A stretch of 64,000 bases of DNA from Psammoneis japonica (taxonomy: Eukaryota). Shown here piece after piece: positions 2,068-48,689 of the stretch. The position numbers and the translations under genes were made by a program. The stretch is taken from assembly GCA_008632985.1 (NCBI GenBank), contig QPGO01000125.1, positions 1-64,000 on the forward strand, in the 5' to 3' direction. Position 1 is the stretch's first letter. Every line of letters begins with the position of its first letter. The notes under the pieces were generated by a model, which was not told the origin of the DNA, made no database searches, and saw only the letters and a list, made by a program, of their open reading frames with translations.

Positions 2068-2071
<4 letters not shown>

Positions 2072-2126
<55 letters not shown>
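2072..2126. repeat. (GT)n microsatellite
   Basis: Perfect GT run visible in the sequence. Confidence 0.95.
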
Positions 2127-2127
<1 letters not shown>

Positions 2128-2881: not shown

Positions 2882-3849
2882 AGAAGGGTCAAGCAGCAGA
2901 TGTGTTTTCTGGCTGAATGTGCATCACCTGGCTCTGAAGATGCTGGAGCTGATGAAGTCACAGTTGATGGCACATTGCTTGGCTCAAATGATTGATGCAG
3001 CAATGATGTGTCACTCGCGGCGCTGCTTGGTGTGGACGCAGGAGGGAGGAGGGTGTGAGTGATGGTGTGTTGCTTGCTTCCTGAGATGGCTTTGTTGATG
3101 GCGGTGCTTCACTGGGCACTGCATGCACTTGGCAACTCTGATGTGTCAATTGATGGCAACTCAGGTGGCGGCCTGTTCCAGCTCCAGGTGCTCCGCTTTT
3201 CATCACGCTGGATTTTCTGCGCAGTTTTCAGCACCAGACATTTTTGTCTCCACCCGGCAGAGCTCGCACTTTTTGGCTTCATGCAAACATTGATCATTTT
3301 GATGATGCAACACATTCATGATGTCAATGCTCATGCACAACAACTGAGGTGCATGATGCGTCACAGGAAGAATCATGTCAGCTGGCATTTGACGTTTTTC
3401 TGGCGATGCGCAGAACAATGCTGACTTCTACGAACACGTGCCATCCACCCAACACACACCAGCCACAATGCAGCACACCACTGTCACCGCTCCACAACCC
3501 CCTCTTTGCCCTTGCAGTTGCATGGAACCGTCTGTTCCTTTCATTTCAAAGTTGCGTCATTGTCATCGCAACATGATTGCGGCTCTAAAGAGTTGCTGTC
3601 ATTGCGGACAACACCATCTCTTTGCACTCTCTCATTTCAAATTTGGCAAGTCGTTCCATTGTGTTTTTTTTTGCACGTCACCGCGCGCGTGTGTTTTTCT
3701 GGTTGCTTCTCACGTGTCGTTTTATGGCTGTTTTGCACCAGGGCCTTCGGAATTTCTGCAAAACTCAAGCATTCGCCCGAGCGTTCTCTGAGTGACAGTT
3801 TCTGCTGGAACAAACTTGTCTTGGTTTGTTTTCACTGTGACGCTTGCTC

Positions 3850-4100
3850 TTTGCACTTTTCAGCATCTGGAGCTGCCTCAGAGGCTGCCTCTGTTCATCT
3901 GCATCACTTTCGCGGCAACTGACGTTGGCCCCCCCCTCTCTGGAGTGCATTTGTTGCACAAGCGGGAGTGTGGCTCACTGTTTGGTGCTTTTCAGCATCT
4001 GGAGCTGCCTTGGAGGCTGCCTCTGTTCACCCACATCACTTTTGCAGTGACTGACGTTGGCCCCCTCTCTGGACGAGTGCATTTGTCGCACAAACAGGAG
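3850..4100 (+). repeat. ~127-bp direct duplication inside the Sola-like element
   Basis: cttttcagcatctggagctgcct..gaggctgcctctgttca...gacgttggcccc occurs twice. The copies differ by CA<->TG swaps. Confidence 0.85.
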
Positions 4101-4268
4101 TGCAAAAGCAGTGCATTTGCCATGGACACGTTGGCCAAAGCAGCCTCCCAGCAGCGTCCCGTTGGCGGCAGTCCCCTCAAGCAAACAATGACTCTTCCAG
4201 CACGTTGAAGGTTTCCTTTTGTTTCCAGCGTTGCGTCGAGGCACTCGCGGAACACCACCCACAGCAGG

Positions 4269-5840
4269 GTGAAGCCAAAACTTGGTGCACTGTGCCTCTC
4301 CAAGATGCAGTTGATCCCCCTTGAGTGCCCTCAAGGTCTTGTAGATTTGAGCATCTTGACCACAGAAGATTGTGGAACAAAGAAGACAAGCCATCTCTTT
4401 CATGTTCTTCATCACAAGAATGGTTTGGATGGGTTCAACAGTGCCAAAACACGGAGCATGTTCCGCGGCACTGTTGTCGATTGGTTTTGTGAAAAATTTA
4501 ACTCCGAGAATCGACCGCAACCAAACCAATGCATCAAGGACAAGAACCAGCACCTCTTGATGTTGGTTGTGGTGCCATCAGGAATGTCAATGAGGGATGC
4601 CATGAAGGACAAGCAAAATGTTGCTGCTGTTTTGATGCACCGTGTCAAGACAAACATTGGCCTGCTTGTTGATTGCATCCATGTGACAGAGTCTCCGGTT
4701 GTGTCAGTTGGGGCGGGCGATGAGAGTGAGTCGATCGCACCGTCGAGTCGAGGTGCATGTCCTTTTTTGACTGGACTTGCCCAAGCCATTTGCTGTGGTG
4801 TTGTCAAGAAGATGGATGCATGTCTTCATTGTCAGAAGACTTTGAAGTCTCATTGCATGGGAGTGATGGGTTTTGAGGACATCACGGACACCATGAGTGA
4901 TCGTTCTGATCTGGCGGACGTCCGCAAGCACTGGGACTGGGATGATCTCATGATGAATGATCAAGGCAACACTGTTGCCCTGTGTGCAAAGGAGAGGATT
5001 GCTCCAATGAGCTCTGCAATTGTTTTGGCATTGCCTCATTCCAGCGCCGAGTGTCAGAATGTCGCAACAGAGATCCGCAAGGATGAAGACTGTTGGGAGG
5101 AACCACTTGTTGAAGGAGGATGCATTGCTGATCATTCGTGCATTGCCAAGCGCCTGTTCCACTTGGCATCTTTGGTCAACATTCAAAACCCAGAAACGCA
5201 CGATGATGAAAAGCTGACTGAAGATTTGTGGACGCATGCGTGGCTGCCTTTTGGCGAGGTCGTGTTTCAAAGTTGGTGGCGAATTGAGTCTCCAAAGGGG
5301 GTGAAGAACAATTTTGAAATGTTGGCTTTGAAGGGGTTGGACGTCAAGTTCAAATGTGAAACAAGATGTCCCGTTCTATCTGCAAAACAGCACTGGGGTT
5401 CAATCTGCAACCATCACTCTGTTCCAAACGAAATTGCTCAGAGGAAGCAGGTGGACGAAAAGCCACTTCGAAAACCACGCATCAGCTACAAGAAGTTGAA
5501 GAAGCCCATTGTGGATCACAGTGACAATTGTGTTTTTCATGATGAGTGTTGCAAAAGGGAGAAGCTTGAACAGTCAGATGATGACATGCAGGAAGATCCC
5601 CACATTCCCGAACTTCCCACCAACGTGCCATGCAAAGTGCTCATGAGTTGCGTGAGTGGCTGCCGGAGGATTTTCTCATTTGGGCCATTCGACCCCAATG
5701 ACGGACTGCCATCCGAGGCCTTGTTTGACATCATTGCAGGTTGGTGGTGCAACCATGCATTGCGGATTGCCTCTGATGGTGAGTGCAGAGGCACCACTTG
5801 TCCGCCAGACCAGCAGTGCAAGCCTTTCAAGCCGCAATGA
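4269..5840 (+). pseudogene. Cargo ORF of the Sola-like element, possible GNAT-like acetyltransferase region
   Basis: 523-aa ORF. LLVD(C=Y)IHV...RG..FL...L(H=Y)C...(HC=YY)...MGF resembles GNAT motifs once Tyr is restored. Confidence 0.4.
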
Positions 5841-6491
5841 TGCTCCGAGTTGGTGGAGGCCATCACTGAAGACAAACACATGGTTGAAGTTCACTTCCCT
5901 GCCAGACCAAGCAGGAAGGAACATTTCAAAGAGCCGCTTGCTCACCTTGCTGATTGGTGCAAGGCAGCTCCTGGACTTGCATGGCACAAGTTTTGCAGAA
6001 GGATTCGTCACCATCGTTGCATGCATCACGCTGGTGCCCGTGATGCAGGGTTGAAGGAAGAGGTGGAGGAGGAGGAAGAGGAAGAGGGGAAGGAGGGCAC
6101 TGAAGAGACGGATGACCTGCAAAAGGCCGAGGCTGGCACTGCAAGGTTGCAACTGCAAGACAAAAACCAGGAGGAGGAAGATGGGGCCATGGATCAATCA
6201 CCTGAGGAAGAGGAGGAAGATGACGGTGTGCAAGACGAAATCTAGGAGGAGCAAGATCCAGAGGAAACTGAGGACGAGGAGGACGATGAACACAAGGAAG
6301 AAGTTTCTGCGGCTGCAGAAGAGAAGAGGGAGAAAGCCAAGACTGCTGAAGAGAAGAGGGAGAAAGCCAAGGCAGCTGAAGAGAAGAGGGAGAAAGCCAA
6401 GGCTGCAAGAGACAAGAGGGAGAAAGCCCCGGCCGCAGAACAGAAGTGGGAGACAGCGGGAGACGCTGGACACAGATGCTCGCATCAGACC

Positions 6492-7700
6492 TTGAAAGAA
6501 ACAACTGGAGTGCACAAGGATGAGGATCTCATTGGCCTTTGCAGCTCTGTCCCAAAACCAAGGCCAAAAGGAGACACTTCATGGTGTTGGTTGACCAAAG
6601 CGCAGCTGCACCAACAAGAAAGGGATCGACTCGAGCGTGAGTGCGAAGACGCTCAAGTGATGTTGCAGGTTAAAAAACTCATTTGGATTGATCCAAGCAA
6701 ATGGAACAGCAGGCGTCAGCGTCCTGGCGATTCCAAAGGAGCCGTTCCTCACTTGTTTGGTTGCTTTGAAGGGAAAAACAAGGGCATCATGTTGTGGGAA
6801 CCATGGTTTGACTTGCGATGCAATGAAATGAATGGCCATCCCATGAACACGTGTGCGGGCCTCATTTTACGTGCCAAACACAAACCAAATGTTCCCCAGC
6901 AACTCAATCGAAAATGCAGGGACGAGATTAAGAACAAGGTGGAATCGATTTGCAACCCACCACAGATTGCCAAACTGAAGAGATTGACTGAAGTGGAGAT
7001 TCAAAAACTTCCACCTGTTGGGCGGGGAGCTGATTTCATTGGTTGCAGCTTGGAGGGGAACCGTCCCATGTGTGCAACCCTGGATTGGGCTGAGTGCAAT
7101 TTCAAGTTTCGGTTTCCAGATGTGTGGAAAGATTTGAAAGAGTTGAAGCCATTGGATGGTTGTTGCTCCTTGCCGGAAGGAAGCGCGTTGATGCCATCGA
7201 ACAGCAACATGCCGACAAGCGGTCCACCCATGAAATTCCTGCAAGGACAAAATGACACTTGCGTTTTTTCCTCCCTGGCCAGTGTTCTTGATTGTGCTGG
7301 CGATGTGGAAATGAGAGACTGCATTGCTCCTCACATTCAAACATCTGCCAACCATGCTGACACTGACAACAAGCACATGTTGTTTGCAAAGAACATGTTG
7401 AACGGTTGTTTGAAGGGAAAATTCCCGCCTGAGAACTCAAACATGAAGTTTTGCAGCAGCATGGATCAAACGATTCCCCTTGCAGCAGGTGGTGAATTTG
7501 ACGTGACGACCTGCAATGATGACTTCATGACTTTGTGCCGTCTTGTGAACAACCACTGCATTGCCTTGCACCGTGGATGGATCTTTGATTCCAACCAACC
7601 TTTTGCATTGCCAGCAAAGGACATTGAGTGTTTCAATTGGTGTCTCAGGAACGAGGAACATGAGGTGAAATGCCTGGTCTGCAACAAGTGTTCATGGTGG
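6492..7700 (+). pseudogene. Cargo ORF with papain-like Cys/His/Asp peptidase motifs, preceded by a Glu/Lys-rich linker (6050-6480)
   Basis: QNDTCVFSSLASVL ... NHCIA..GWIFDSN gives Cys-His-Asp order and spacing. Confidence 0.45.
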
Positions 7701-10700
7701 TGCACCAGTTTGAACTTCCTGGGGCGGTGCAGCAGAAGTTGCGTGCAAAAAGGAAAGCTTTTGTGTTGGATGGCCAACCCAGTTGCACAAAATTGCCATT
7801 TTGTTTGTCCAAATTGTCGCTGTCACTGTCCCCTGCCGTGCTCTCATCATCCTCCACAGTGTCTTCCATGTTGTCATTCTCTCCCCCCCCACTCACCAGC
7901 AGCCCTCAAAATGATCCATTGCCTCCCGCTGACGGATGGCATCCAGAATTCCTTCATGCTCGACATCACTCAAATGACATGGATGAAGAAGTGAAGCCTC
8001 GTTCCTGTTGCATGCACTTGGCAGTTCCAGATTGGCTGATGGTTCATCAAGCTCAATGTTGGCAACTGCAATTTGCTTGAGCAACACTCTTGTCTTGCAT
8101 TCCTCAGCATCACTGGGAGTGTGCCATCCTCTGGCCCATGGAACAGGGTTAAGATGTGCTCCCTTGCAAACCCATTCACTGGCCTCAACAGTCATGGGCG
8201 GGTCAAACTCTTTCCAAACCTCGTCCTCCTGTGCTTTGTGGGGGAGTTCATCCCATTGCAGCAGACAGAATCCCTCCTCAGATTCACAAGACAATGTGGC
8301 GTGGCTGTTTGGAATGATTTCCTTGGCCATTTCCTCAGTCAGGAAGTCCAGCACAGATTTGTGAACCAACTGCACCTCGTTGGCGTCACTCTCATCTGTT
8401 TGAATCACCTGGCACACTTGCCAGTCGTTCAGTCCCTCAAAGATGGGTCGCAGTTTGCAAGCTCAGTTGCCACCTGCATGTCTTGGCTGCTCTGTTGGCT
8501 CGACATTTTTAACCCAAGGCCGTTTCAGCTGATCCAGGCAGGCTTCACATGCACAAGGAATTCTTTGCATCGCAGCCCAACCAATGGGGAAAAGAGGTTC
8601 AAATCGGAAATGGTGCAAGGCTCCAATGCCACAATGGCATGTGTGCACTTGCACCAATCCAATCAACTTGACTTTGATTGAAGAGCCAAGAACTTCGTCA
8701 GCTTCCTGCAGACAATGCACCCTTTGCATTGGCTTTCGAAGAGATTCCCTCTTGGCATGTTTTCTGTCACCAACTGCACCAAAAGCGCTCTTGTTCTTTG
8801 TGACCATTTTGTGACATTCCTTTGCACAACTGTGCGCGGCTGCAACACTGTTGTCATCCATGACCAAAGCTTCAGGTCTGATTTTCCCATCCTTGTCATT
8901 GACTCCTGCAACAGTTGTGGACTGCATTTCTTGATGTACGAGTGATTCAATGCAGGCTCCAATGCCATCAACCTCTCCTTTGCCATGTCCAGGTGCTCCA
9001 ATGGCACGGTCAAACACAATGTTGCATTTGTGCACAAAGACAGACAACAAGTGCAGTGCCAAAGCACATCGGTGTTGTTTGGCACAACCACCAGTGTGAT
9101 CCCAAAACACAAGCCACGCCTTGTGCAGGTTACGGTTTTTTAACCAGGTGACAAACTTTTCCAAGTGAGCATTGGTGGTGGTGGCATCTTGCTTGGAAGA
9201 GTCAGAGAGATGCACATGATGTGTTTTCTGAAGCTCATTGTCAACCATTGCATCGCAAACTCTTCCTTTGATTGACAATGTTCGGTTGTTGCCACAATGG
9301 TCACCCTGAACTTGGTTGTTGAACTCTGCCTTCTGATGCTCGGAGCAGTCATGAGACGTGAACAGGCTGTTGGGTGTTGACTCAAATGCTTTGCAACGCA
9401 TTTCCATGCAATGATTTTTTCTGAGAATGACCACGTGGGGAAGGTGGCAGCGGAGCTTCTCTAAACTTGGAATGCAGTGCTCTTTTGTAAAGACACCGAC
9501 TGGTTTTCGGAACCTTGTCAACAAGGTCCCACGTTTCACCTTTGCATCCTTGTTCCCATCTGGATCTGCCTCACAAACAGGACATGCTTCCATGCACACA
9601 CCATGCTTGGAACAACTTTTTGCAGTCAAGCAACATTGAAACAAAACTTGGGGTGCACTGGGACTTTCATTCTGTTCCAACAATGGAGTTGGATGGGATG
9701 GGCAATGCTCGCATTCACCCAAAACGCATTTCCAATGAGGATGATCCTGACCATTGACATTGCCACAAATGATGGTTGCAACTGCATCTCAGGCTTTAGG
9801 ATGAAGGTGATGGCCGTTGGGGCCAAACGCCTCCTCTTGACAGACACGCATTGTTCCCTCCAATTTGCCAAGGGCACTGTCATGGTTCTCCAAGTTCTCA
9901 GGGTCCTCACTCGCAAGCTTCGACCAATTTTGCTCCACCTCCATCTCTTTTAAAAGCTTCCTTCGAAACCTGTTCAATGCATCTTGTAGAAAATTGGCAC
10001 TGGTGCAATCGCTGCATTGACACATGCTGCATTGACTTGCACTCATTTTTTGACACTGCTTGGGAATCAAAAATCGAAACATCATGTCGCTGATGAGGGT
10101 CTTGCCATTGGCATCACATGCACGTTCGAATCCGCCAACAGACACAGGCTTCAACATGTCATTGTGCGGCTCACGCATGGACACATTGCGCAACCATTTG
10201 TTCACTCATTTCTTGTTTCCATCTTCATCTTTAATGAGAATCATGTCTCGTGTGTTGGGAGACTGCACTGTGTCGGGATGATTTGACAACCAGCGCACAA
10301 ATGCCTTTCGGATCTCAGGGGAAACTTTGTGAGGACGCCGATGGGGTTGCACTGAAGACCACATGACATTGTCAGTGTTTGAAGTCAATGCCTCTCTGGC
10401 AATCTTTCCCTTCTTCATTTGGTGACAAACAGTGCTCCGTTTCAGGCCAAGTGCCTTGGTGCAGTCATGGGAAGACAACTTTTCCTCTTCAGCAGATTTT
10501 TCTGGTGAACCGGAGATTCCAGTTGCAAGAGCACGGACAAACGATTTTTTGTCGTCAGTGAGGTGTTGACCATTGCTGGTGCCGTTGGCACGTGCCCACA
10601 TTTTGCCCAACTGCTTGGCAATTTGCAAGGCCGCAGAATTTGTTTTCGGCAATGCAAGTTGCAAGCCTGAAGAAATGGGGCCATTTCGGGAAAATGCAAA

Positions 10701-11120
10701 GCACACGCATGAACGCACAGATTTGTTGTTCTTGAGCGGCGGCGCAAAACAACACTCCTTCTCTCACTTTGACCACTGCACAACAAAGTGCCTGTTGGGG
10801 ATCCTTGTGGGTTGCTTCGAATGCATGAGGGTCAAAAGTGGGGCAACCTTGGGAGGCAGTGAGGTTGACAGCAGTTCGGTTGGCCGAAGCGACAGAGGGA
10901 GTGACGGCGGCATTGTCAGAGTTTGGGTTGGAGGGAGTGGTGGCCGCTCCTGCAGCATGCATTTGGGAGGGGGCTGGCTGTCTTGGCAAGGACAACCCTG
11001 GACAATGAGTGGGGTGTTCCTTGGAGGTGTTCAGGTTGAAAGCAGCCAGGTCGGTGGGAGCAACAGAGGGAGTGACGGCGGCATTGTCAGAGTCAGGGTT
11101 GGAGGGAGTGGCGGCCGCAT
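7645..11120 (-). pseudogene. Sola2-like transposase, fragmented, Tyr->Cys/His mutated
   Basis: Motifs D(C)SE...QVQGDH(C)G, HLSDSSKQD, W.....GCAKQ(H)RC and APGHGKGEVDGIG in ORF 8463-9722, with adjoining in-line ORF pieces. Confidence 0.7.
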
Positions 11121-13199
11121 TTCGAAAATCGAAAGGTGAGTGTGCACCCAAAAACACATGCAAAGTGCACACTTGCCCTTCGGTTTGGCAAAAAACGGAT
11201 TTCGAAAAAGTCATTTGCGCCAAACCCAAAAAGGCCAACGGTGGGAATCGAACCCACGCGGAGCACCTGGAGCTGGAACAGGCCTGGCATCAATGACAGC
11301 ACACACCACCAGGTTCAGCCAAGCAATGGAGTTGTCAATGGCACATTGCACAGAAGAATGTGCTGGGTGCCATGGCACAGGTGTTTGACATCACAGCAAA
11401 TCAAGCAAGTGAAAGCATGCTGCTCAGTTTGGCTGAGAGAGCCACACACAGAGCAGAGCTTGGTGCTGCACTTGGGGCTGCAGAAGGACTTTGTTCAGAT
11501 GATGAACATCAGGTTGATGGCACATCACTCACAATGGTGCTTGGTGTGGAGGAGGGTGCAAGAGACAGTGTGTGGCTTGCTTCCAAAGATGGCTTCATTG
11601 ACGGCACTTTGCTGCGGGCACCACAATTGACAACTCTGATGGGTTTGTTGATGGCAGGGTGGATGGCGACAATGACGGCATGCAACTGATGTCAGTGGAT
11701 GGAGTTGTCTTTGGTGCATTGCTTGGAAATGCACTGGGCAGCAAGTGATGGCGCGTGCTGCTGATGCATCACTTTTGCTGAGGGAGCCATGTGCACACAG
11801 AGCAGAGAGCCTGGCATTGCACTTGCAACATGGAATGAGCACAAAAGGCCAATTTTGTGCACAATGCTGTTGTGCAAACATGCAACACAAACAACTGCTT
11901 GTTTTTGATTGCAATGAAGGATTGAATTTGATCTCATTGTCCCTCAAAGCCTTGATGTCTGCCCTTCCATTTTGGCCTTGTGGCGGCTTTTGGTTGTTTT
12001 GGAATTTTCAAATTTTCGTGCATGAGGCCTGCTGTCAAACATTTTTTGGTTGTCCCATTCTCCATTGCAGACTGCTGCAACAGGCAGGCAGGAGAGTGAG
12101 GAATCTGAAAAAAAAACAGGATGTTCCAGCTCCAGGGTGGTGGAACACCTGGGAGCCCACAAACAAGGGGGCTCAAGACTTGTGTGATTTTAAGGTGCTG
12201 CGTGCGGCTCTCTGTCGGCACCACAACATGCATCAAGAACCTTTGCCTGGCTGGCACACAAGCTGTGTCTGCACACAAACCATCAGTGGGGTGGGTGCAA
12301 AAAGAAAGCCCGGAAGTCTCATGTCATCTTTGATGCCCACAGAACATGGCAAGCACACAGCATCTGCTGGACACAGCCACTGCCACCACAAAAAATGGGT
12401 GGACAGCAGACCAAGCCAAGTGCACTGGCGGGGCTTCTCATTGAACTCTGAGCTGGTGCAACCCCCCCCTTGGCTTTTTTCAAGAAAAGTTTGGTGCATC
12501 AGGAAGCACCTGAGTGTGGCAAAAACCCCGCTCCTCCTGTCTCATTGGCAGGAACCAAAAGGACATCATGTTGTGCTCACTCAACCTTGTCGTCCAGCAA
12601 ACACATGACGTTCTCTGTGAAAGTCACAATCTTGGCCCTCACATGCACAAAAAAAACAGCACTGTGCATGAAAACAGACCAAATTAACTCACAAAAGCCA
12701 TCTCAGTTGTTGTCAAGTTCCCCAAGCAGAGAGCAACAGTGTGCCAAGTTGCTTTGTGCAGCAGTTTTTCAAGTGCACAAGCTTCCAGCATGAGGGCATG
12801 ACAAACAAGTCATGCCAGACCACAAGGACAAGTTGCCAAGTGAGCTCAAAATGTCACAAAGTGAGCCAGGCAGTGCCCAAAGCCAGCCCCTGCAGAAGTT
12901 GCTCCAAGTGTTTTTGTTGAGCTCTCCAGCAAGTCAAACAGTTGCACACAGTTTTGGCGCAAGGTTTGAACCCCCCAGCATCTCCCCAAACACAGAAAGA
13001 CACAATGAGAGATGGAAGATTGCAAGGATGAGCAACCAAACAAATCAAATGAGGTGCACAAAAAATGATTTCCACAGCTGTTGTGTGCAAAAGTTGCTTT
13101 CCAGGTGTTTTTGTTCAGCTCCAAGCAGAGCAGCCTGTCATGCACAGCTGCAGCGAAGCATTTCCTGCACACATCTCCCAATGAGACCAGCAGCACCAG

Positions 13200-14810
13200 T
13201 CACTGCCCCCCCCCCCCCCCCAATCTGCAACTCAGTCCATGTGTGGCAGACTTGCTTTGCCTGCCACTGAGCACACTCTTGACAGAAACAGAAGACAAAA
13301 AGCAGACCCAACCACTTTGCAAAAAGTTGAGGCATGGAGCCAAAAGGCAGAGAGAGCAGGAGTCACTCTGGCGCTGGTGCTGAGAAAAGTGACTCTCCTC
13401 AACTGTGTGCCAGCATGGCAAGAGACCTTGCACCTGCACCACAGTCAGAGAGTTGTTGTGCAGCACTGGCAGTGCTCCATGGGGGTCACCCATGTTGGAC
13501 AGCAAGAGCTGAAATGTGAAAATGTCTTTCAGGCCAGTGTGAAGCTGGAGCTGTGCCACTTTGTCAGCTGCAGTGCACCCCCATTTTTGGGCATGTTTGC
13601 ATGGTCTGGGTGATCTTTTGTTGTCAAAGTGATGGCCTTCTCAACAATGTCTGCCGCAAAAGTGTCTGTCACAACTTGGCTCTCTTTGTTGCTGTGTGTG
13701 CTTTGAGCTCCACTTGCACACTGGTGGCAGGAGCAAGAGAGATCACCAACCTGTCTGGCTCAAATTGACAACACACGGATCAGGCAATCCAAAAGTGACC
13801 CCTTTTTGCAGAAGCAAACCCCCTCCCCCAAGTGCTTTGCAAAATGAGCTCCCCAGCTGTCAGTTTTTTCCTGCAGATGTTGGCACACCAACAACACCAG
13901 CACAGTTGTGCAACCAACATGAGACATTGCAGCGTGTGCACCCCACCATGGTTGGCCAGTTTGTGCACTGACAAAAGAAGTGTCACAAGGTGACGTGCAC
14001 AAGCAGTGACAGACAGCGGCGCACCACTGGCCACTGTCAATTGTGCAAATTTTCCAGCTCCAGCTAGAAGGGTCTGCACACTTGGCCCAGCAAAGAAGTG
14101 TGTGAGCACATGAAATTTCTTGTTCCCTCCAGTTCTTAAAACTGGTGTGTGCAGCATGCACACACAAGATGCAGCACAGGAGGCAACTGACTTGTTTCGT
14201 CTCTCATGTGAAGCCCCAAAATGCCTTGCTTTTGCTGCTCCTTGCAAATCAAAGGGCTCTCACAAACACTGCAGCCCAGAGGAGGGCAGCGGAAGTGAGA
14301 CACAAGTGCTTTGAAATCCATGCTGAGCAAACAGTGCCAAAAAACACAAGACATGTCTGCTGTTGCTGCACCAAACGCCCAAGAAGGCAGCACCACATTT
14401 CTCTCTCTCCTGCTCTCTCTCTCTCTCTCCCCAACAAAGCCCCGTTGTTGCAACAAGAAATGTCTGGGCTTTGCTCTGCAGATTTTTTGATTGCTGCTTT
14501 CCACTCGCCAGAGTTTTCGCGCATCTTTTGCAAATTTGAGTTGTGTTGCCATTTGGTGCAACCCAAATGTCAAGTTTTCACCAAGTGGCAAGTTCACTGC
14601 ATCAAAAGCCCAACCCACACCTCCACAAAATCCAGCACAAATTTTTCTTTTGTGCCACACAGCTTGCACACAGGGCATCTCTTGACATCTCAAGGCAAGG
14701 CTTCATGATGTGCAAGAATCCTTGGGGAAATTGTCTCCATGTTTGGCACCACCAAAAGAGCTGCAGTTGAATCTGACAATCAAGCTGCTGAGGCCAATTT
14801 GCTGCCACCA
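13200..14810 (-). pseudogene. Decayed gene of unknown function, paralog of 23954-24800
   Basis: 14590-14800 aligns with 24590-24790 (AGFCGGVGWAFD vs AGFYGGVHWAFD; GLSSLIVRFNCSSF vs SLSDLNIRFDCISF). Confidence 0.5.
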
Positions 14811-16206
14811 TGGACAAAAATGAAGATCAAACCTTGTCTTGTCATTCTTGCTTTTTTATGCTGATGTCGTTTGTGGGCTGGGTCTGTGGAGGTGAGGCAA
14901 GAGAAGGGAGAGAAAACTTGACCCCAGGCATTTGTTTGAGTTTTCTCACTTGCGCAGCGCTTTTTTTTCAATCAAGCTGCAAATTCTTGAGCAAGTTTGG
15001 ACTCAAGCCATTGTTGGCTGCTTGTGCATGTGTTGTCAAAGGGACAGGTGTGATGCAGTCAAAGGTTTGGCTTGTTGAGAGCATCAACGCAGCTGCTGTT
15101 GTCAGCTCTCAGAGTGTCAGCAGAGGGGGGGGGGGGGGCGGCCAAGGTGTGGTCAAACTGGAGAGGTGCAGAGGCACCAGGCCATCAAAGTGTGAGCTGC
15201 AGTCTCCACAGGGGTGCTGCAGCAGAGCCAGTTTGGCAAGCCAACAAAGCAAATTTTGTGTGGGTGCCTGCCACAGGACTCTTGGAAATTGAGTTGCCAT
15301 TGAGAACACAGACAATCAAGTGGCCAGGCAAGTGGCCAACACTTCTTGAAAAGTTGGATCGTGCATCTCCACACATGCCAAAGCAGAAGCTGGTGTGACG
15401 TTGCAAAACAAGAGGTGGAAATGCAGGCTGCAGGCTGCACACACAGTCTCAGCACTTGGATGCATTAAACCAGAAGCCTTGAAGGTGAGAAGGGCAGGTC
15501 ATTGGGAAAAATGTTCATTGCATGTAGAAACAATGCCAGATCTTGTGCACAGAAATGCCGGTGGTTGCAGCAAACAGACAGCAATCAACTGACACCAAAT
15601 GACAACTCACACTCACACTTGCAACAAGGGCCACAACAGAGACAGCACTTTCACCCCAAAGAGTGAAGAAGTTGATTGAACAACGGAAAAAGGAAGCAGT
15701 GCCAAAGACCAACTTGTGTGGACAGAGGTGGACCAGAGATGTGACAAGCAAATCATGAGCAGGTTCATGTGGAAATGCTGCGAGATCTTGCACGCAGCTG
15801 CTGATGGGCACAGCAAATGGATGACAGTCAAAGGACATTGAAGGATGACTCATGTTTCGTGGGCATGTCCACAGTGTCAGCAAGTTTGCTTTGGGAAAGA
15901 CACGCTGTTTGCACCTTGAATTGCTCCAAATTTGCAAGGGGCAAGAAGGGGTGCCAGACAGGGCTGCAATGTTTGAGAAGGATGTTGGGGTGTGTGTGTG
16001 TGTGTGATGCACAAAATTTGCAAACTTTGCTGGGGTGAAGTGGCCAAGGGCAAACAGCCGCTGCTTTCTAAAAAGGCCATCAGCTGGCCTTCAATTCTTG
16101 ACTGTGCCTTCATTTGTGACCACTGCCAGGCTGTTGATCATGCAGGGGCAGCAAGCATCTGAAATGGGCTCTCTGTGTTCTTGCCTGGTGTCATGGCAGG
16201 ACAAAT

Positions 16207-16637
16207 TGCCCTGTGTATGTACTGGGCGCTGAAAAGAAGATGTGTTACGACTTAGTCGTTGTGAAAATTATGAGCTAGTTTAGAGTAGAGAAAGTGGGAT
16301 CGTGCGAATAGGGAATCTTGCCAAATCCCTATTCGTTCGCATTTGGATCGTATCAAATCGATCGTGCGTTCGCATTATGGATCGTGCGAATCAAGCCATC
16401 ACGCGCTATGCACGAGTGATGTCATCGTGTGGAATCACGCTACCATCGTGGGCCAGACGACGGGCTAGTGTGCTTCACACGGATGCTCTCTTAGCATCCT
16501 TCTGGAATTGCCTAAGACCTAGAGCCACGCCCTCCTGTGGTCGTGCTTCCCAGGTACGCGTTAACAATACTACGTTGCCACGTACAAGAGGCTTATGCAC
16601 GGTCTCGCCGTGTTGTCCAGTAGCGAGGCATACTGCA
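16207..16637 (-). repeat. 3' LTR (TpA largely intact)
   Basis: TG...CA termini. Collinear with 23523-23953. Contains 26 TpA by manual count. Confidence 0.95.
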
Positions 16638-16648
16638 CACTCCCCCAT
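16638..16648 (-). promoter_or_regulatory. Polypurine tract
   Basis: Minus strand ATGGGGGAGTG immediately precedes the 3' LTR. Confidence 0.8.
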
Positions 16649-16676
16649 GATCAGGGCCGTTAAGTGACAGGATGTC

Positions 16677-18073
16677 TTACTGGTGATAGGGTACAATCTG
16701 CCGTAGATTGTACGTATCTATCAGCGCTCCGTTCTGGATACGCAACGTGCCGTTGTCATAGGTATACACGGACAACTCTGGCGGGTCCTGCATAGCTGTC
16801 AGAACCGTATTTAGAGAATTGTTCCTGTTTGATAAGTACCAATTGCCCTACGGTATATTGATACTCCTTGCGTTTCTGATTTTCACGCTTGTTGTTTAAG
16901 TGGATAAGCTTCTGCTTTCTGGTTTCTATGTACTTCCACTTAGCACGATAGGCAATAGATAAAACCGCATCGCGTCCGAAGACCAATTGCATGGGACTTG
17001 CACGCGTGGTCGTATGTACCGTAGCTCTAATAGCGAAGGCTACTGCAGAGAGGATGCCACTCCATGGGTCATCTTCGTCCAGTTCCATATCCTGTACTGA
17101 AAAGGAACGTACCATGTTACCAAGTGTCTGGTGTACACGTTCCACTATGGCATTCGCCTGTGGATTTCGCTTACTTATGGGTTTCTTCAAAATCCCATAG
17201 TCATTTTTAATCATCTGGCTAAATTCTGCCATAAATTCTGTCCCACGGTCATAAACCACCTGGGTTGGCCACGGATATCTGCATAGCCACGTTTGTTCCA
17301 CGACGTTTGCTACGACGTCTGCGCGTTTCGTAGACACTTCTTCAATCTCGAACCACCCGGTTGCTGGGTCAATCATTGTGACTGCCCGTAATTGCAAAGT
17401 GTCCTTTCCGCGTCTTTGAATTTTATATGGCCCTATCATATCTATGCATAAAGTCTCCCATGGAATTATCTCGGCGACCTTTTCTGGTAGCTTCCCATAA
17501 CGCTGCGTTCGGCGTTTTGTCTTCTGGCATCGATCGCACTTAACGCACGTAGAATGCACCGTAGACCTCATACTAGGCCAATAGAAGTGCTGGGCAATAG
17601 ATGTTTCCGTACGTGTCTCACCTGGATGACACAGTGTCTCGTGGTACCATTCAGTTAGCGGAACCTGCAATGACTGTGGTACTGCGATTTTGTCCTTATG
17701 ACAGATTAACTGTCGTGATGACCCTCCCCCACGATACGCGCGAATGGAGTAGTCGGACGAGTCCTTAGCTCGTGAGAGTAGGCGCTTGTCCTTTTGTTGT
17801 GCTTTTTGAATGCGCTTGAAGCTAACAGGCAGAGATGCATCGTCTTGCGCGTCTGCATTAAAGGCTTCATGTAAAGGACGACTCGATGGAGTGTCTTTTA
17901 CATCCAGATTGGCCTTGGAAGGCAAGCTGGGTGCCAGCCGAAGGCGACTAAGAGCGTCAGCGACTGGGTCATGGGTGCCCTCAACATGGCGTAATTCGGG
18001 ACCGCATTCTTCGCATGTTGACCGCCAGCGCATAACGCGCTCGGCATTGAACACTTTGTACGTAAGATTTTTA
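16677..18073 (-). pseudogene. Gypsy pol: end of RNase H plus integrase (HHCC, DDE, GPY/F-like tail)
   Basis: WYHETLCHPG..HFYWP..CDRC, IDMIGPY, TMIDPATGWFE, YDRGTEF, NAIVERVH. A 4-bp insertion at ~16761 frameshifts the last ~27 codons. Confidence 0.92.
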
Positions 18074-20122
18074 GACCCTGTCCAAACTGGATCATGCGCA
18101 TGATCACACATGACGTCACAGAGCCTAAAATCAGCCTCTTCGAAAAAAACAGTGGTCATTGGCCCAGTGCATGACGCAATTTTAGGCCATGCGACATTTC
18201 CAGAGGAACAGTGTTCTTGCGATGACACTGTTCCTCGGGAAATGTCATGCCCCCGAATCATGCCCCATTGTGCCCCCGTCCAATGACCGACATGGTGTCG
18301 GTTTTAGATGGATCCAAAGCGCGCATGGCTGCAATCTACATGAGACAACTGCACAATGCCATGCATGAGTTGTTTGTTGTCTTTGGGGGGCATTGTGTGC
18401 CATTTTCTAGACTCTTCTGGCTCAGCAATTCTGCCAAGCATTTTCTCAATGAACTCACATCAGATGTTCTTGCAGCCAACTGCTTTGGTCACAAGTTGCA
18501 CATGCACATGATTTTTGTGACAAGAGGTGTTCTTAATGTGGCTTGTTGCTGCCTCATGGTTGCGTTCTTGTCGTCATGGTGAGGTCGTTCTCGCCGTCGC
18601 GTGTTGTCATTTGTTTTTGCTTGGGCTGTCTGGCATTGCTGCACGTGCTGCAGAAATGAATCACTCGACTGATGTCTCCGGGTGTGCGATGTGTTTTCAT
18701 CCCAGGTGAGAAACGCACACACGGAGGTGAGGCGTTTCATCTGTCCCTTTTCCATCGCCGTGCTTTTTGTGCGAGCAAATCTGACTGGACTTTCCCCCAA
18801 TTTTTCGTTTCTTCTTTCCACAGACATGTTCATTTTGAAAAGCCAGCCGTCATTCTCATTGGTTGAAGGGTGCGCACAAGAAAAGCGCTGTCTCGAAAGC
18901 GGCATTTTTTGGAGTGAAACTGACAGCTGTCTGCTCGTTGTTGTCATTCTGGTGCATTTGAGAGACTGTTCTGCTGTTTCTTTCACCGAATCTGACTGCT
19001 TTGAAAGAATGTGCGCATTGTTCATTGTACAAAGAGCTCACACCAAAAAAGAACGGCGTTCTAACTCTGTCACTTGCATGAGAAAAATCGGGGGAACTGA
19101 CTTCGCACGTGATTTTTTTGCGCGATCGGCCATTTCAAAGATCGACTGATTTGTCGACCTGTGTGGGATGCTTGAGTGAACAAAACAATGGGATTGAAAT
19201 GGTGGCGTCAAAGTTCAATGTGTGTCTGGTTGTCATGTGATTTGACATGCCCAAGCAGAGTTAAAGATGAAATGTTGACAAAATTTCACCACTCAAAATG
19301 ACCAGTTCCATCTTAGAATAAAATGAAATGGCTGCAACACTGAGATGTCGCCAATGGCATTGTTCCACTTTACAACAATGAAACTGTCACACTTGCATCT
19401 GAGATTTTTTGTCCTCACACACCCTCAAAACCGAACACATGACGATTCTCTTGTCGGCAGCGAAATCTGATGTTGTCGCGCGACCCAAAAGCGTCGTCCA
19501 TGGTGACTCAAAGTGCGGACGATGCATTGCAAGAGTCACAGCAACGTGTCATAGAAACGTTCTTCGTTGTCAGCATCCGGTGTCAAGCAGATGGAGCAGC
19601 GTGTTGATGAGAATCCCACTTCGCAAGCTGAGGAAGAGAGAAAGAGGCATCAAAAACATCATGAGTCAAAAGGCTGTCCATGAGGCACAACAAAAAACAA
19701 AGATCAAATTTTCAACCACATCATCGCATTGAGCGTTGTCTCATTGACCTGTCTCGGCATTCTCACCTTCTCAGTCACAACATCCGTTGGTGCAAGAATG
19801 GACGAGTTCATGGCGATGGCATGGTGCCATTTTCGGTTTGCGCGAATTGTGGTTTGTGGTTCGAGACATGGAAAAACATGTTTTTGCTGTCATGGAGCTC
19901 GTTTTTTACCAAGATTTTTGGCACCAAATGTACGTCTCATGTAGAAACACGTAGAAAACCTCGTGATGTGTCCAAAAGTTTCTCACCTGGGATGAAAACA
20001 CATCGTGCATCATGCGTGCAATTGAGTTTGGAAAGGACAATGCAAGTGTGACCCATGACATCAGCGAAAAAGCCTTCGTGACGCAGGTGTGATCATGGGT
20101 GTGATCCAGTTTGGACAGGGTC
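18074..20122. mobile_element. PIF/Harbinger-like non-autonomous element nested in Gypsy RNase H
   Basis: TIR GACCCTGTCCAAACTGGATCA (18074-18094; reverse complement 20102-20122). TSD is TTA on the left and TTG on the right. Removing it restores D-H-K-N-L-T-Y in frame. Confidence 0.85.
18688..20004. mobile_element. Sola-like non-autonomous element (1.3 kb) nested in the Harbinger-like element
   Basis: Perfect 27-bp TIR GATGTGTTTTCATCCCAGGTGAGAAAC, 4-bp TSD GTGC. Confidence 0.8.
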
Positions 20123-20125
20123 TTG

Positions 20126-22320
20126 TGATCAGCACGTGCAATTGCACGATGACCAAGGAGAATCGCTCGAAATTCTTTCAACGTCTCCACAATGGCGAGT
20201 GATTCTCTCTCCGTTGTTGCACAATTTAGTTGCGCACTGTTGAGCTTTCTGCTGTAAAAGGCGATGGGTTTGTTGTCTTGGGATGTGACTGCTCCCAATT
20301 GACATTTAGAGGCATCGGCATGCATCTCAAAGGGTTTGTTAAAATCAGGATGTGACAATGAAACATCATCTGACATCACCCGTTTGACGGTTTCGAACGC
20401 CTCGTCTTCAACGGACGTCCACTCCCACTTGACAGTCTCGCTTGCGAGTCGTGTTGGCGGAGCCAAGACTTCAGAACGTCTGATCCACGTGTCACGGCAG
20501 TGGTTCACCACACCAACAAATGAGCGCAGGTCGCGTTTGTTGGCTGGGGTCGTGATTCGCTTGATGGCGTCGACTTCATCAGGTGTTGGTCGCACCGCGT
20601 CTCTGTTGACCAGGTGACCCAAGCACTCTAATTGGGTTTGACAGAAGTGAGATTTAGTTGCATTGACTTTTAGTCCTGCTTTCTGGACCCTCAACAAAAC
20701 TTCTTCAAGTTTGTTGAGGTGATCTTCACAGGTGCCTTTCGTCACGACGAGAAGGTCATCCAAGCACGTTCGAACGAACGACAGATCTTCAAATGAGCCT
20801 GACATGCGTTCGACGCGTTCCAGCCCCAGGTGGGACTCCGTGTGACATTTGGCCCGTAGAATTCTACGTGCGAGCTCCGCAGCACAAGAATTTAATCAAT
20901 GGATGTGTTCATCTTCAACATCAAATAAACGGCCAAGTTTGTGGCACAATCATGCCTCTCACCACTCGACGTTTTTGCAAATGCACCTGCCCCACGCAAT
21001 TCTTAAGACATTGTAGAATCGCGCTGCAACAAAAAATGTCAAAAGTTTTTGGACGGATCGCTCAACAAGTGCACCGTAAAATGACACAAAATGTCAAAAA
21101 ATCACGTAGAATTCTACGTGCGCGACATACGACGAGATTCAAAAAACTGTCGATGTCACAGTTCAGCAGTGCGAGGTCCCACCTGGACCTGGAACGCGTC
21201 GTTCTTGGAAAATGTCTGGCGAATTGCATGACCCCATGGGCAATGCCTGCATCTCACACTTGCCCCACGGGAAGATGAGCGTGCAGAGCTTCTTGCCATC
21301 AGTGTCCAATCGGATGTGATGACAGCCCATGTTCAAACACAGCGATGCAGCCCACACAAAGCCTTCGAGCTCAAGCAGCATGTCTTGGACATGAGGAATC
21401 GGACAAGGCAATCGCTTGATCCGTTTGTTCAGCTCTCTGAAATCATTGACAAAGTGCACCGTCAAATCTTTCTTCGGTGTGACAAATGATGGAGCTGCCC
21501 ATTGGGATCGGTTGACGCGTTTGAGAACACCGATGCGCACTGGGCGTTCTACTTCTTTACGCAGCGTGGCTTCGTGCGCACGAGGCACTTTACACGGATG
21601 AGCGTGGTGTGGTTCTACACCCTCCTTGAGCTGGACATGGCAGGGTTCTCCCTTCCATTCTCCTAGTGTCCCATCAAACAAGGACTCATGGCGTTTCAAC
21701 AGTGCCAAAAGGTCGTTTTGTTGAACTGTAGAAAATCCCACTGCCCCTCGCGTTATGTCCTTGAGGCAGGCCGGCGCATGCTCAGTGTCTAAAATGCGTG
21801 AAATCCGGTCGGTTTCCGAAGACAAGGCTTCTGGATCTTGAAGATAGAAGGAGGTTTCTGCCGCAGCATCTGCGTGCCTCATTGGCACTTCTCCATTGAC
21901 CAGTGGCCACTCTGTCATCTGCTTAGAGAAGACAACATCAATGCCTTGTGTCTCCAGAATGTCACGTCCAATGATCGTGTCGTGCTTGCCCAACTTTCCG
22001 TTGTGCATGTGGACGGCATGTTTGAGTTCTACAGTTTCGGACAATTCTGGCAACCGAAATTTAACGGTGCAGTCGTCAGACGCACTGAACGAGCCTGCTG
22101 CCGTAGTCCAGTTTGTCTCAGCCGTTGAATGGCTTCGCAGACGCTTGCAGCATCGACTGTCGAGTAGAGCACTGCTGGCGCCACTGTCCAGCAGTGCCTT
22201 GATGGTTTGAGTCTTGCCCTTGCCATGTTTGGCATTCACAGCTGCAAACAAGATTGGAGCAAGATGAGCCTTTTTAGTTCGTTTGCGGGGTTGGCCTGCA
22301 ACACGTGTGCGACGGCAACT
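20126..22320 (-). pseudogene. Gypsy pol: aspartic protease, reverse transcriptase and RNase H, hypermutated
   Basis: LLDSGAS; WAAPSF..PKKD; DFRELNKRI; LPMG..NSPDIFQ; CLDD (=YLDD); DAS..QLGA..SQ..KPIAFYSRKL; ERE.LAIVETLKEFR. Confidence 0.92.
20812..21200. mobile_element. Sola-like MITE (389 bp) inserted in RT
   Basis: 25-bp TIR GACGCGTTCCAG(CC/GT)CCAGGTGGGAC, TSD GTTC. Removing it restores I-F-Q-E-R-M-S. Two internal CGTAGAATTCTACG palindromes. Confidence 0.85.
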
Positions 22321-22383
22321 CAGTTGTTCATTTGTGCATTCATCTGATGTGTTGAAACCACCTGCATCGTGTCGGCCCCCTTC

Positions 22384-23428
22384 TCAGGTGTCCGAATCTT
22401 TGGAATCACTTGAGTTGAGGTCGCGGAAGTGATTGAGCTCCTCCTCGCGTGCCTTGCGCTTTTTCTGAGCATTGGCAAAGAACTCCTCGACCTTCGATCC
22501 GATGAGAGCATCAATGTCTTCCTCATTCCAAGGTTTTGCACCAGGCTTGCTGCCTCCATCATTGGAATGTCCAGTCTTGACACGTTTCACGTGGTGCTTG
22601 AGCTGACGGCAATCCTCCGCATGATGTCCACAGTCAGTCCCGTGTGGCATGCACGACTTCTGGGTGTTCCGTTGGGTCGTGATCAACGACTCAGGATTGT
22701 CCGTTCTATGTCCCCGCTCATGCAGAATCTCAGCATGTTGGTCCAGGTTACCTTCGGCAAGCTCGACCTGCTTGATGCGCTCGCAGAACTGTGCAAATTC
22801 GGCGATGGCATGCGCCAACGGGTCAAAATTCTGTAGCGTCATGAACTTCTGCCATGCATTCGGCACACCGCACTCGAACATGTCGTGCAGTTTGTCATTG
22901 GGCAATGGTGCCGGTGCTTCTCCATCCTCCATCACGGGTGGAAACTGAGAGACACAGCCGTTAATTTCAACAGCCCTCACGACGCAGTCACGAGCAGAAA
23001 CCTCTGCGGGCTTGCGCATGAAGCGCCTCAGACAGATGCTTCTGCAACAGCACCGCCCCATGTGGGAAGATGCTTTCCTTTAGCTTCGCGACGCATGCTG
23101 TGCACGCAGCGTTGGCTTGGGATGCCTGCTTGTCAGCGGCATCATTGAATGACGTCAGAGCATCGCCCTGCAGCAGGTCACGCACAAGGGCAAATTTCGC
23201 TGGCACGGTCGTCATGTTTTGTCCTTCGTGCACACGATCCACGTTGCGCAGAAAGATTGGGAGTGTCTTGCATGCAGCCGCAGAAAGGCACGGGATGCCC
23301 ATCTCATGTGTTGGACTGTCCGGATCAGCGGGGTTGTCATGCAGTTTGAACGTCTGGCACTCGCCCTGCTGCAGCTCTTTCTTCTCCGGCCGTGCGAACG
23401 GAATCGGCGGCTCAACCCACTTCTTCAT
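22384..23428 (-). pseudogene. Gypsy gag (frameshifted, hypermutated)
   Basis: MKKWVEPPIPFARP...LLQGDALTSF...RRFMRKP...P.AWQ...F.ER, and a decayed C..HG...H....C knuckle. Confidence 0.75.
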
Positions 23429-23522
23429 GGTCGTTTTGAGATTTGTCGGTCCTGCCAACATTTCGTAGTTTCGTTTCTGCAGATTTTGTTGCCTCGCACA
23501 ACATGCGGGAGCAATGTCACTG

Positions 23523-23953
23523 TGCCCTGTGCACATGCTAGGCACTGAAAAGAAGATGTGTCACAACTTTGTCGTTGTGAAAATTGTGAGCCAGTTTAGA
23601 GCAGAGAAAGTGGGATCGTGCGAATGGGGAATCTTGCCAAATCCCCATTCGTTCGCATTTGGATCGCATCAAATCGATCGTGCGTTCGCATTGTGGATCG
23701 TGTGAATCAAGCCATCACGCGCTGTGCACGAGTGATGTCATCGTGTGGAATCACGCTGCCATCGTGGGCCAGACAACGGGCTGGTGTGCTTCACACGGAT
23801 GCTCTCTTGGCATCCTTCTGGAATTGCCTGAGACCCAGAGCCACGCCCTCCTGTGGCAGTGCTTCCCAGTCACACGTCAACAATGCTGCGTTGCCACGTG
23901 CAAGAGGCTCATGCACGGTCTCGCCGTGTTGTCCAGCAGCGAGGCACACTGCG
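23523..23953 (-). repeat. 5' LTR (TpA-erased)
   Basis: Collinear with 16207-16637. Only 2 TpA remain. Confidence 0.95.
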
Positions 23954-48600: not shown

Positions 48601-48689
48601 CACACAAGATTCTTGAGTTGCCCAAATGCATTGCACAAAAACATGCAGTTAAATCCATTGGACACCATCTGTTGGCAACTTCAACAGAC

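Follow-up and report, generated by a model that had tools for sequence, protein, structure and literature searches.

A signature of TpA-directed hypermutation in a gypsy retrotransposon and neighbouring DNA of the diatom Psammoneis japonica

The gypsy element and the TpA-purged blocks

The window analysed here is the whole stretch of 64,000 nucleotides at positions 1 to 64,000 of contig QPGO01000125.1 (assembly GCA_008632985.1) of the diatom Psammoneis japonica, and its central subject is a Ty3/gypsy retrotransposon on the minus strand, most of which, like several large blocks of DNA elsewhere in the window, is depleted in the dinucleotide TpA. The element has the order protease, reverse transcriptase (RT), ribonuclease H (RNase H) and integrase (PR-RT-RNaseH-INT), long terminal repeats (LTRs) of 431 bp with the terminal base included and with TG..CA ends in element orientation, and a polypurine tract, GGGGGAG, that adjoins the left LTR. 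Pfam domains locate the integrase at 16756-18303, RT/RNase H at 19906-20895 and the protease at 21163-22383, and a full-length pol homologue aligns as three pieces (22344-21199, 20811-20113 and 18087-16762) because two nested insertions, one a DNA transposon with long terminal inverted repeats (TIRs) and one a miniature inverted-repeat transposable element (MITE), split the gene. From left to right the element is composed as follows:

16203..16206: left target-site duplication of the gypsy element, AAAT, with its right copy at 23954-23957, recognised from the flanking sequence
16207..16637, minus strand: left LTR (the 3' LTR of the element), TpA-normal, with 26 TpA in 430 bp
16756..18073, minus strand: integrase part of pol, TpA-normal, open reading frame (ORF) intact (Pfam Integrase_H2C2, rve)
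18071..18073: left target-site duplication of the nested TIR element, TTA, unchanged
18074..20122: nested non-autonomous TIR DNA transposon of ~2.05 kb, TpA-poor, with 40-nt TIRs that are 90% complementary
20123..20125: right target-site duplication of the nested TIR element, now TTG, that is, TTA with its TpA altered in place
20126..20810, minus strand: C-terminus of RT and RNase H part of pol, TpA-purged (Pfam RT_RNaseH_2, RT_RNaseH, RVT_1; tblastn 20811-20113)
20811..21201: nested 391-bp MITE with 26-nt TIRs (20811-20836/21176-21201)
21202..23522, minus strand: gag, protease and N-terminus of RT, TpA-purged (2-10 TpA per 500 bp)
23523..23953, minus strand: right LTR (the 5' LTR of the element), purged, with 2 TpA and with 5 CpG lost to CA/TG

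The integrase part aligns by tblastn (18087-16762) at 64% identity to homologue P0055, and has a ratio of observed to expected TpA (o/e) of ~0.8-1.2, while the element to the right of ~18100 is mostly depleted (1-10 TpA per 500 bp). Contigs of the public run X1 hold the joints 18073->20126 and 20806->21200, each in two contigs, which represent other copies of the gypsy element without the inserts; the first of these empty sites indicates that TTA was duplicated when the TIR element inserted. We call that insert PIF/Harbinger-like, a superfamily assignment drawn solely from the 3-bp TTA target-site duplication, which we take to be a Harbinger mark; a Pfam scan found no transposase in it, and two ORFs from the insert matched no Pfam family. 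The MITE family is present in thousands of copies, given its summed contig depth in run X1 of 219,061 versus ~33 in the unique flanks, and the gypsy family is likewise high-copy (summed depth 10,000-33,000 versus ~33 in unique DNA, same run). Within the window, blastn found no further gypsy copies, and tblastn of 120 pol homologues gave 0 matches outside the element.

The gypsy element sits inside a larger tract of TpA-poor DNA, and its left LTR starts exactly where that purged DNA ends. In total ~30 kb of the window have a TpA o/e of 0.03-0.11 and a CA+TG o/e of ~1.8, with sharp edges, against a TpA o/e of ~0.5-0.7 and a TpA frequency of 0.039 (500-bp windows) in the gene-bearing host DNA. 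A preliminary description of this locus, made from the letters of the sequence, had recognised the signature in the retrotransposon, and rightly so, but had under-reported its scale: multi-kb blocks of the window are nearly TpA-free. Outside the element these are:

1..16206: old purged block 1, interrupted by the gypsy insertion and resuming at 23954 to ~24600
46222..51797: old purged block 2, with sharp edges
60450..62036: purged block 3, 1.6 kb

Block 1, counted over 1-16201, contains 33 TpA in 16.2 kb (TpA o/e 0.033, CA+TG o/e 1.78, CpG o/e 0.35), block 2 (46201-51801) contains 19 in 5.6 kb (TpA o/e 0.050, CpG o/e 0.15) and block 3 (60451-62051) contains 6 in 1.6 kb (TpA o/e 0.064, CpG o/e 0.53). 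CA and TG are equally enriched in purged blocks (1736 vs 1787, and 625 vs 640), and the edges, given as the last and first TpA on either side, fall at 16069 and 16216, 24074 and 24627, 46221 and 46597, and 51235 and 51798. Thirty-four ORFs taken from the three blocks gave 0 significant Pfam families, even at E <= 1, and a search for TIR or LTR termini of these blocks found none that was convincing. Block 1 includes a scaffold gap of 306 N (2576-2881), and block 2 a degenerate tandem array with a 44-bp unit in ~12 copies (49400-50050). A 308-bp dispersed repeat (42255-42561 and 62220-62518, 80.5% identity) lies in TpA-normal DNA, one copy being ~180 bp past the right edge of block 3.

Spectrum, direction and context of the TpA losses

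When the two LTRs are compared over 430 ungapped columns (16207-16636 vs 23523-23952), 36 columns differ (91.6% identity), and 24 of these 36 are TA in the left LTR and TG or CA in the right, with only 4 transversions among all differences. The 26 TpA of the left LTR read CA in 12 cases, TG in 12, TT in one, TA in one and CG in none, which reproduces exactly the tally of the preliminary description. That description had also counted about 5 transitions among about 33 CpG, no ApA->ApG change and few other changes, and realignment agrees on each point: the 33 left-LTR CpG are represented in the right LTR by 27 CG, 4 CA, 1 TG and 1 AG, non-TpA A reads G at 0 of 73 sites (T reads C at 2 of 88), and outside TpA 11 of 378 positions are altered. 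With the TT included, TpA dinucleotides are altered in 25 of 26 cases versus 11 of 378 other positions (Fisher p = 3.5e-30), and GC content rises from 0.505 in the left LTR to 0.544 in the right. Two TpA are found in the right LTR, one common to both LTRs and the other TG in the left. No CpG is present in the right LTR and absent from the left; in each of the five CpG transitions it is the purged LTR that has lost the site. The CA and TG outcomes are not significantly clustered by strand along the LTR (11 runs vs ~13 expected), and the 3' neighbour, from these few sites, is C 10, G 6, A 4 and T 4 for the edited A and G 9, T 6, C 5 and A 4 for the unedited A of the same sites.

A duplicated host-gene pair (25776-26522 / 26916-27661) serves as a control for this spectrum: its 84 mismatches include 36 transversions and only 7 changes of the TA<->TG/CA kind, and 25-27 TpA are retained in each copy. 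These are tandem paralogous genes with a DUF7467 domain (25776-27661) that share 88.6% identity over 747 bp and show an ordinary substitution spectrum.

The two LTRs alone give no direction of change, and the tests of direction use outside references. For pol, the 120 homologues were used, and a column was kept if it had 30 homologues or more and 60% or more of them agreed. In the TpA-poor part (protease-RT-RNase H), the 19 conserved-Tyr columns now hold His in 8 cases (encoded CAT/CAC), Cys in 7 (TGT/TGC), and Arg, Met, Trp and Tyr once each; in the TpA-normal integrase part Tyr is retained in 10 of 14 such columns. Conserved His, Cys, Gln and Trp are retained in both parts of pol, with no His/Cys->Tyr or Gln/Trp->stop changes of the type made by repeat-induced point mutation (RIP). 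A single TA>TG/CA step fits 39 of the 107 substituted conserved columns of purged pol (22 TG-type and 17 CA-type on the coding strand), as compared with 1-6 columns for each of five control dinucleotide changes, and fits 8 of 41 substitutions in the spared part. Other copies of these elements point the same way. Among contigs of run X1 with at least 80% likeness to the window, the 40 variable places shown (633 more exist) include 22 that are CA/TG in this copy and TA in other copies (divided 10:6:6 among gypsy part, nested TIR element and MITE), 8 that are TG/CA in this copy and CG in others, and none that is TA in this copy with TG/CA in others. Lastly, 78 related metagenome elements have a TpA o/e of 0.56-1.18 (median 0.755). 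From the pol homologues, the other copies and the related metagenome elements together, we consider it settled at the level of sequence that TA is ancestral and CA/TG derived. The preliminary description had named TG/CA in other copies as the sign that TA was derived, and those copies instead read TA at the CA/TG sites of this one; of the spectra that it proposed to compile, that of this LTR pair is dominated by TA>TG/CA (24/36), and among the kinds of change listed for run X1 transitions prevail (589 vs 63 transversions).

Several observations place the change after integration, at the level of chromosomal DNA. Two LTRs of a single insertion differ, the cut-and-paste DNA transposons, which have no RNA stage, differ from their families, the target-site duplication, which was formed on the chromosome, is altered on one side only (TTA/TTG), and more than 20 kb outside the retroelement have matching composition. 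Both strands are hit alike, as judged from the LTR (12/12), from His versus Cys at conserved Tyr (8 vs 7) and from the substitution test (22 vs 17). The earlier claims of equal strand targeting and of A to G change in TpA on chromosomal DNA are thereby upheld by evidence from the pol columns and from the nested transposons with their TTA/TTG duplication, beyond the LTRs on which they were made. Double hits are nearly absent (no LTR TpA reads CpG, and CGT has replaced a Tyr codon at 1 of 19 columns), because the first hit removes the TpA site, as fits an agent that reads TpA.

The sites that survive are also informative. Each TpA was classed by its flanking bases (NTAN pooled with its complement) as RTAY, YTAR or mixed, R being a purine and Y a pyrimidine, with the following counts:

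Unpurged gypsy part: RTAY 34, YTAR 24, mixed 57
Unpurged host DNA: RTAY 355, YTAR 222, mixed 703
Surviving TpA in the purged gypsy part: RTAY 0, YTAR 15, mixed 15
Surviving TpA in the old blocks: RTAY 1, YTAR 35, mixed 18

Survivors differ from unpurged DNA in context with Fisher p of 2e-5 to 3e-13, TTAA makes up 19 of the 54 surviving TpA in the old blocks, and the two left-LTR TpA not converted to TG/CA are both TTAG. The surviving TpA are thus non-random, and RTAY is lost first and YTAR (TTAA, TTAG/CTAA) last. In the LTR pair the relative decay is -ln(2/26) = 2.56 for TpA and -ln(27/33) = 0.20 for CpG, and ~5 differences in ~312 other positions give 0.016 per site, so that TpA loss is ~13 times CpG decay and roughly two orders of magnitude above other substitution. 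Given that CpG has been lost by transition from the purged LTR and is depleted in the old blocks, the purged domains would seem to behave as cytosine-methylated DNA.

The losses have an unusual effect on reading frames. By the genetic code, TA>TG/CA makes no new stop, and TAA becomes TGA or CAA and TAG becomes TGG or CAG. Counted on both strands, the 16.2-kb old block has 37 TAA, 15 TAG and 714 TGA, compared with 284, 260 and 580 in an equal length of host DNA. With no new stops made and TAA/TAG removed, dead DNA retains very long ORFs (543, 582 and 441 codons). The very long ORFs (441-582 codons) in TpA-free DNA include 4209-5840, 6246-7994 and 8463-9788 and lack tyrosine; across seven old-block ORFs (2712 residues) Tyr is 0.0%, His 5.3% and Cys 6.4%, as compared with 2.6%, 2.5% and 2.4% in host ORFs. 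One of them, ORF 6246-7994, has no Pfam family and gave 39 matches by phmmer against 1.84 billion representatives (best E 3.6e-18); of the 12 matches scanned, 11 are without family and one bears, in another part of the protein, a Ulp1/C48 peptidase domain, and the alignment of its homologues contains only 2 conserved-Tyr columns.

Candidate processes at the locus

The direction of change, its TpA specificity, its strand symmetry, its action in place on DNA, its regional confinement and its context bias can each be read from the sequence comparisons above. We consider it very probable that they record a diatom mutational process that acts on the chromosomal DNA of transposons and further silenced DNA and converts A:T to G:C at TpA. 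In such a process, the A:T pair of TpA would become G:C, turning TA into TG, or into CA by way of the other strand, and one hit would destroy the TpA target, hence the lack of CG products. It would run to near-saturation in discrete, sharp-edged domains that also lose CpG, as methylated heterochromatin would, and the genes within them would be killed by missense changes (Tyr->His/Cys, Ile->Thr/Met, Leu->Ser/Pro), leaving long tyrosine-free ORFs. The process is plausibly an enzyme-driven defence. As its chemistry we tentatively favour a deaminase, recruited to silenced chromatin, that would turn adenine in DNA into hypoxanthine.

A number of points weigh against this reading. The evidence here is a historical signature in one 64-kb window, and not measured de novo mutations. 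TpA is self-complementary, and the data cannot tell whether A or T is attacked. The targeting of foreign or mobile DNA holds for the gypsy element, the nested TIR element and the MITE, and repeat targeting is shown only for these, as the old blocks gave no transposon or virus class. The read-level check proposed in the preliminary description was favourable, in that single-copy-depth contigs carry both LTR end states with 0 differences, but run X1 may be the assembly's own sample and hence not an independent confirmation. Neither sample of relatives shows the signature: at 33 conserved-Tyr columns, no pol protein among the 120 homologues carries >5 His/Cys, and none of the 78 related metagenome loci is purged (lowest TpA o/e 0.56). 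Both samples are biased against the signature, the proteins having been picked by likeness to unmutated integrase and both of the DNA patterns ending in a Tyr codon, and so these negatives say nothing on how widespread the process is. Finally, the left 1.87 kb of the element (left LTR and integrase, 16207-18073) is TpA-normal, though it belongs to the same repeat family as the purged remainder, so that a simple model in which all parts of all copies are targeted fails and an extra assumption is needed.

The spared segment has a TpA o/e of ~0.8-1.2 in three full 500-bp windows and 115 TpA in total. Its limits are the outer end of the left LTR and the left end of the nested TIR element, where TpA at 18033, 18059, 18063 and 18072 are followed by sparse TpA. 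It is not wholly pristine, as TG stands at two left-LTR positions for which TA is the probable ancestral state, and 8 of the 41 substitutions in its part of pol fit the signature. Two Logan contigs of single-copy depth match the window with 0 differences: record 3 (15125-16233) joins the flank to the first 27 nt of the left LTR, with TA at 16216 and 16220, and record 7 (23923-24976) joins the last 30 nt of the right LTR, which bear CA, to the other flank. The asymmetry at the two element ends is therefore present in the reads. It is quite possible that an unmutated copy, or the cDNA of one, later served as template for patching the spared segment, from the LTR terminus to the heterology at the nested insert, in which case the LTR comparison would be one of an old with a fresh copy, with the same spectrum, and not one of in-place divergence. 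The premise of the preliminary description that the LTRs, identical at insertion, diverged in place is to that extent uncertain, while the spectrum read from them stands. A mutator domain with its edge set at the nested insert is a possible, if somewhat less probable, account, and an assembly join between copies inside the repeat seems unlikely; no listed contig of run X1 bridges 18073/18074.

Among other explanations of the signature as a whole, the direction might be thought reversed, such that TpA-poor DNA was the original state and a RIP-like C->T change at CpA/TpG made the TpA seen in the left LTR and integrase. RIP in Neurospora does turn CA/TG into TA on both strands, and the LTR pair alone cannot tell, but the TpA-rich part of pol keeps its conserved His (5/7), Cys (6/7), Gln (9/10) and Trp (9/10), its 515-aa open frame has no Gln/Trp->stop change, and CA/TG>TA fits only 1 of its 41 substitutions. 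With 18 of 19 conserved Tyr lost from the TpA-poor part, related elements at o/e 0.56-1.18 and TA in the other copies, we regard this explanation as extremely improbable, the RIP direction being refuted by the Tyr columns, the substitution test and the TA states of other copies. It is highly improbable, too, that ADAR-like A-to-I editing acted on the RNA of the element, or on sense/antisense double-stranded RNA, before reverse transcription and that DNA was never attacked. ADARs do have a 5' U preference and hyper-edit repeat double-stranded RNA (as noted in the Discussion of Mettrop et al., bioRxiv 10.64898/2026.01.13.699255). However, the LTRs share one template and yet differ, T>C and A>G are balanced on the coding strand (8 His/7 Cys; 17/22), and the signature is carried by two cut-and-paste DNA transposons, a TTA/TTG duplication and 20+ kb of flanking non-retroelement DNA. 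The 3' context deduced from survivors also disfavours purines, in contrast to the 3'-G preference of ADARs.

An artefact of mis-assembly, of consensus polishing across copies or of a misread modified base is very unlikely, even though the repeat is high-copy (depth 10,000-33,000 vs ~33), block 1 has its scaffold gap at 2576-2881 and the junction 18073/18074 lacks a listed contig. Single-copy-depth contigs with 0 differences tie each unique flank to its own LTR end (TA left, CA right), the old blocks, single-copy at a depth of 33-75, are also matched without any difference, a misread base would yield mixtures of TA, CA, TG and CG and not 12 CA, 12 TG and 0 CG, and the Tyr->His/Cys pattern in the protein is coherent. 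Selection or compositional bias against TpA, for instance through a TA-cutting nuclease or a general under-representation of TpA, would draw on the host coding DNA itself having a TpA o/e of ~0.5-0.7; it has a negligible chance of being correct, as the purged DNA is dead, with conserved pol residues destroyed, its o/e of 0.03 is 15-20x below that of the host with edges sharp to tens to hundreds of bases, and the two LTRs of one insertion differ. A different chemistry deserves more attention, though we still think it improbable: T might be attacked at TpA, through an oxidation or modification that pairs with G, or the changes might come from error-prone repair synthesis. A self-complementary site hides A>G from T>C on the opposite strand, dinoflagellate DNA carries 5-hydroxymethyluracil preferentially at TpA, and WA sites (W being A or T) are where Pol eta introduces T:G mispairs. 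Against a WA-type polymerase, however, there are no ApA>ApG changes (0/73 non-TpA A in the LTR), and the one hit that kills the target, with 0 CG products, fits a site-reading enzyme.

Related systems and implications

To our knowledge, fungal RIP was until 2026 the only known regional, dinucleotide-specific hypermutation that inactivates chromosomal mobile DNA. The process proposed here resembles RIP of Neurospora and other fungi in that dinucleotide-specific transitions are made regionally in repeats, on both strands and toward saturation, and RIP is associated with cytosine methylation where here there is CpG loss in purged DNA. Unlike RIP, which changes CpA to TpA with an AT-rich outcome and the creation of stops, the changes here run from TpA to CpA/TpG, raise GC and make no new stop. 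As for duplication as the trigger, the hit element is high-copy, yet its left 1.87 kb is spared and the 747-bp duplicated host-gene pair is unaffected.

Other deaminase systems offer partial parallels. AID/APOBEC3 would share with the present case, if its enzyme is a deaminase, a context-specific hypermutation directed against mobile DNA, but these enzymes act on cytosine in single-stranded DNA (C>T / G>A), mostly on one cDNA strand and before integration, as opposed to A:T>G:C on both strands after integration. In the natural substrate of TadA/ADAT the edited A follows U (U33-A34) and has a pyrimidine 3'. This matches the T-A with a favoured 3' pyrimidine found here, and the adenine base editors derived from TadA favour TA; the natural substrate of TadA and ADAT2-ADAT3 is tRNA, however, and activity on duplex chromosomal DNA with recruitment to silenced domains would be new. 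ADARs, too, are aimed at repeats and make A>G changes in both strands of a duplex, favouring a 5' U/T, but their substrate is RNA and the change is not heritable unless reverse-transcribed, so that they cannot explain the altered DNA transposons, the target-site duplication or the LTR asymmetry.

The closest counterpart is recent. The preliminary description knew of no such system, a statement that is now out of date, as a preprint dated January and April 2026 (Mettrop et al., bioRxiv 10.64898/2026.01.13.699255) reports, in its main text, TpA hypermutation of integrated viral DNA in mutation-accumulation lines of Bigelowiella natans. According to that text, 231 of 302 new single-nucleotide mutations fell within integrated giant-virus and virophage regions, nearly all of these were A>G or T>C, with such changes all at TpA, and the rate was ~6e-7 in hit regions versus 3.5e-10 elsewhere, ~1000x background, with the process active in only some of the lines. 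The same source describes 124 clusters of TpA-poor, CpA+TpG-rich windows in the B. natans genome and 324 coding sequences with a mean TpA frequency of 0.0018 that are enriched in RT and DDE domains, proposes an ADAT2 homologue as a candidate enzyme, and gives the hit insert as single-copy. Our literature search found no report of the signature in diatoms, and no organism other than B. natans with it, the preprint being covered in its main text.

By analogy, the two cases appear to be the same kind of process: so far as the preprint's main text goes, both consist almost only of A>G/T>C changes that are restricted to TpA, yield TpG or CpA and are regional, and the purged-block composition is alike, at ~1 TpA per 500 bp here. 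They differ in host, which here is a diatom (stramenopile) and not a chlorarachniophyte (rhizarian), in targets, which here are an LTR retrotransposon and nested DNA transposons and not the giant-virus/virophage insert of that text, and in extent, the changes here being near saturation (24/26 in the LTR; 16 kb with 33 TpA). CpG decay, the RTAY>YTAR bias and a domain edge at a nested insertion are found here and not in the main text of the preprint. The diatom case is thus best described as a distant-lineage, saturated and transposon-borne instance of a TpA hypermutation already in print for B. natans; what it adds is a context rule, CpG decay in the same DNA, ORFs that decay without gaining stops, and a domain edge that coincides with the nested insertion.

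The remainder of the window bears genes that are intron-poor, long ORFs. An eIF5A ORF (57450-57863) has 85-93% identity to diatom proteins (the named matches being Odontella, Cylindrotheca, Mayamaea, Amphora, Seminavis and Nitzschia), and a ferric reductase likewise has diatom proteins as its best named matches. These matches mark the window as diatom DNA and speak against B. natans as its source. On the plus strand, 30726-39448 holds a cluster of ORFs for leucine-rich-repeat proteins with a plant-type LRRNT_2 cap, which may be either a tandem receptor-like gene family or one large gene with short interruptions. At 27700-30100 the GC content is 0.59-0.67 and the GC skew strongly negative; repeats of ~90-560 bp occur inside the region, and its long ORFs, which overlap and lie on either strand, match no Pfam family.

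The same signature in a diatom suggests that TpA hypermutation is a widespread, unrecognised defence rather than a curiosity, and as diatoms include transformable, CRISPR-tractable species, a hunt for the enzyme is practical. A natural A-to-G enzyme that works on chromosomal DNA would interest the base-editing field. There is also a warning for annotation, in that stop-free decay leaves ORFs of as many as 582 codons here, which gene-finding programs will report as genes. As a new and simple index, TpA o/e can serve to date the silenced DNA of algal genomes and to map where it lies. We suggest, tentatively, that TpA-directed hypermutation may be a genome defence common to distant lineages of the SAR group (stramenopiles, alveolates and rhizarians), of which the diatom version would be an RTAY-preferring DNA adenine deaminase that reads chromatin state and saturates on transposons in methylated, silenced domains. 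If so, it would mirror RIP in function, would be nature's counterpart of the engineered adenine base editors, and would explain tyrosine-free 'orphan genes' in algal annotations.

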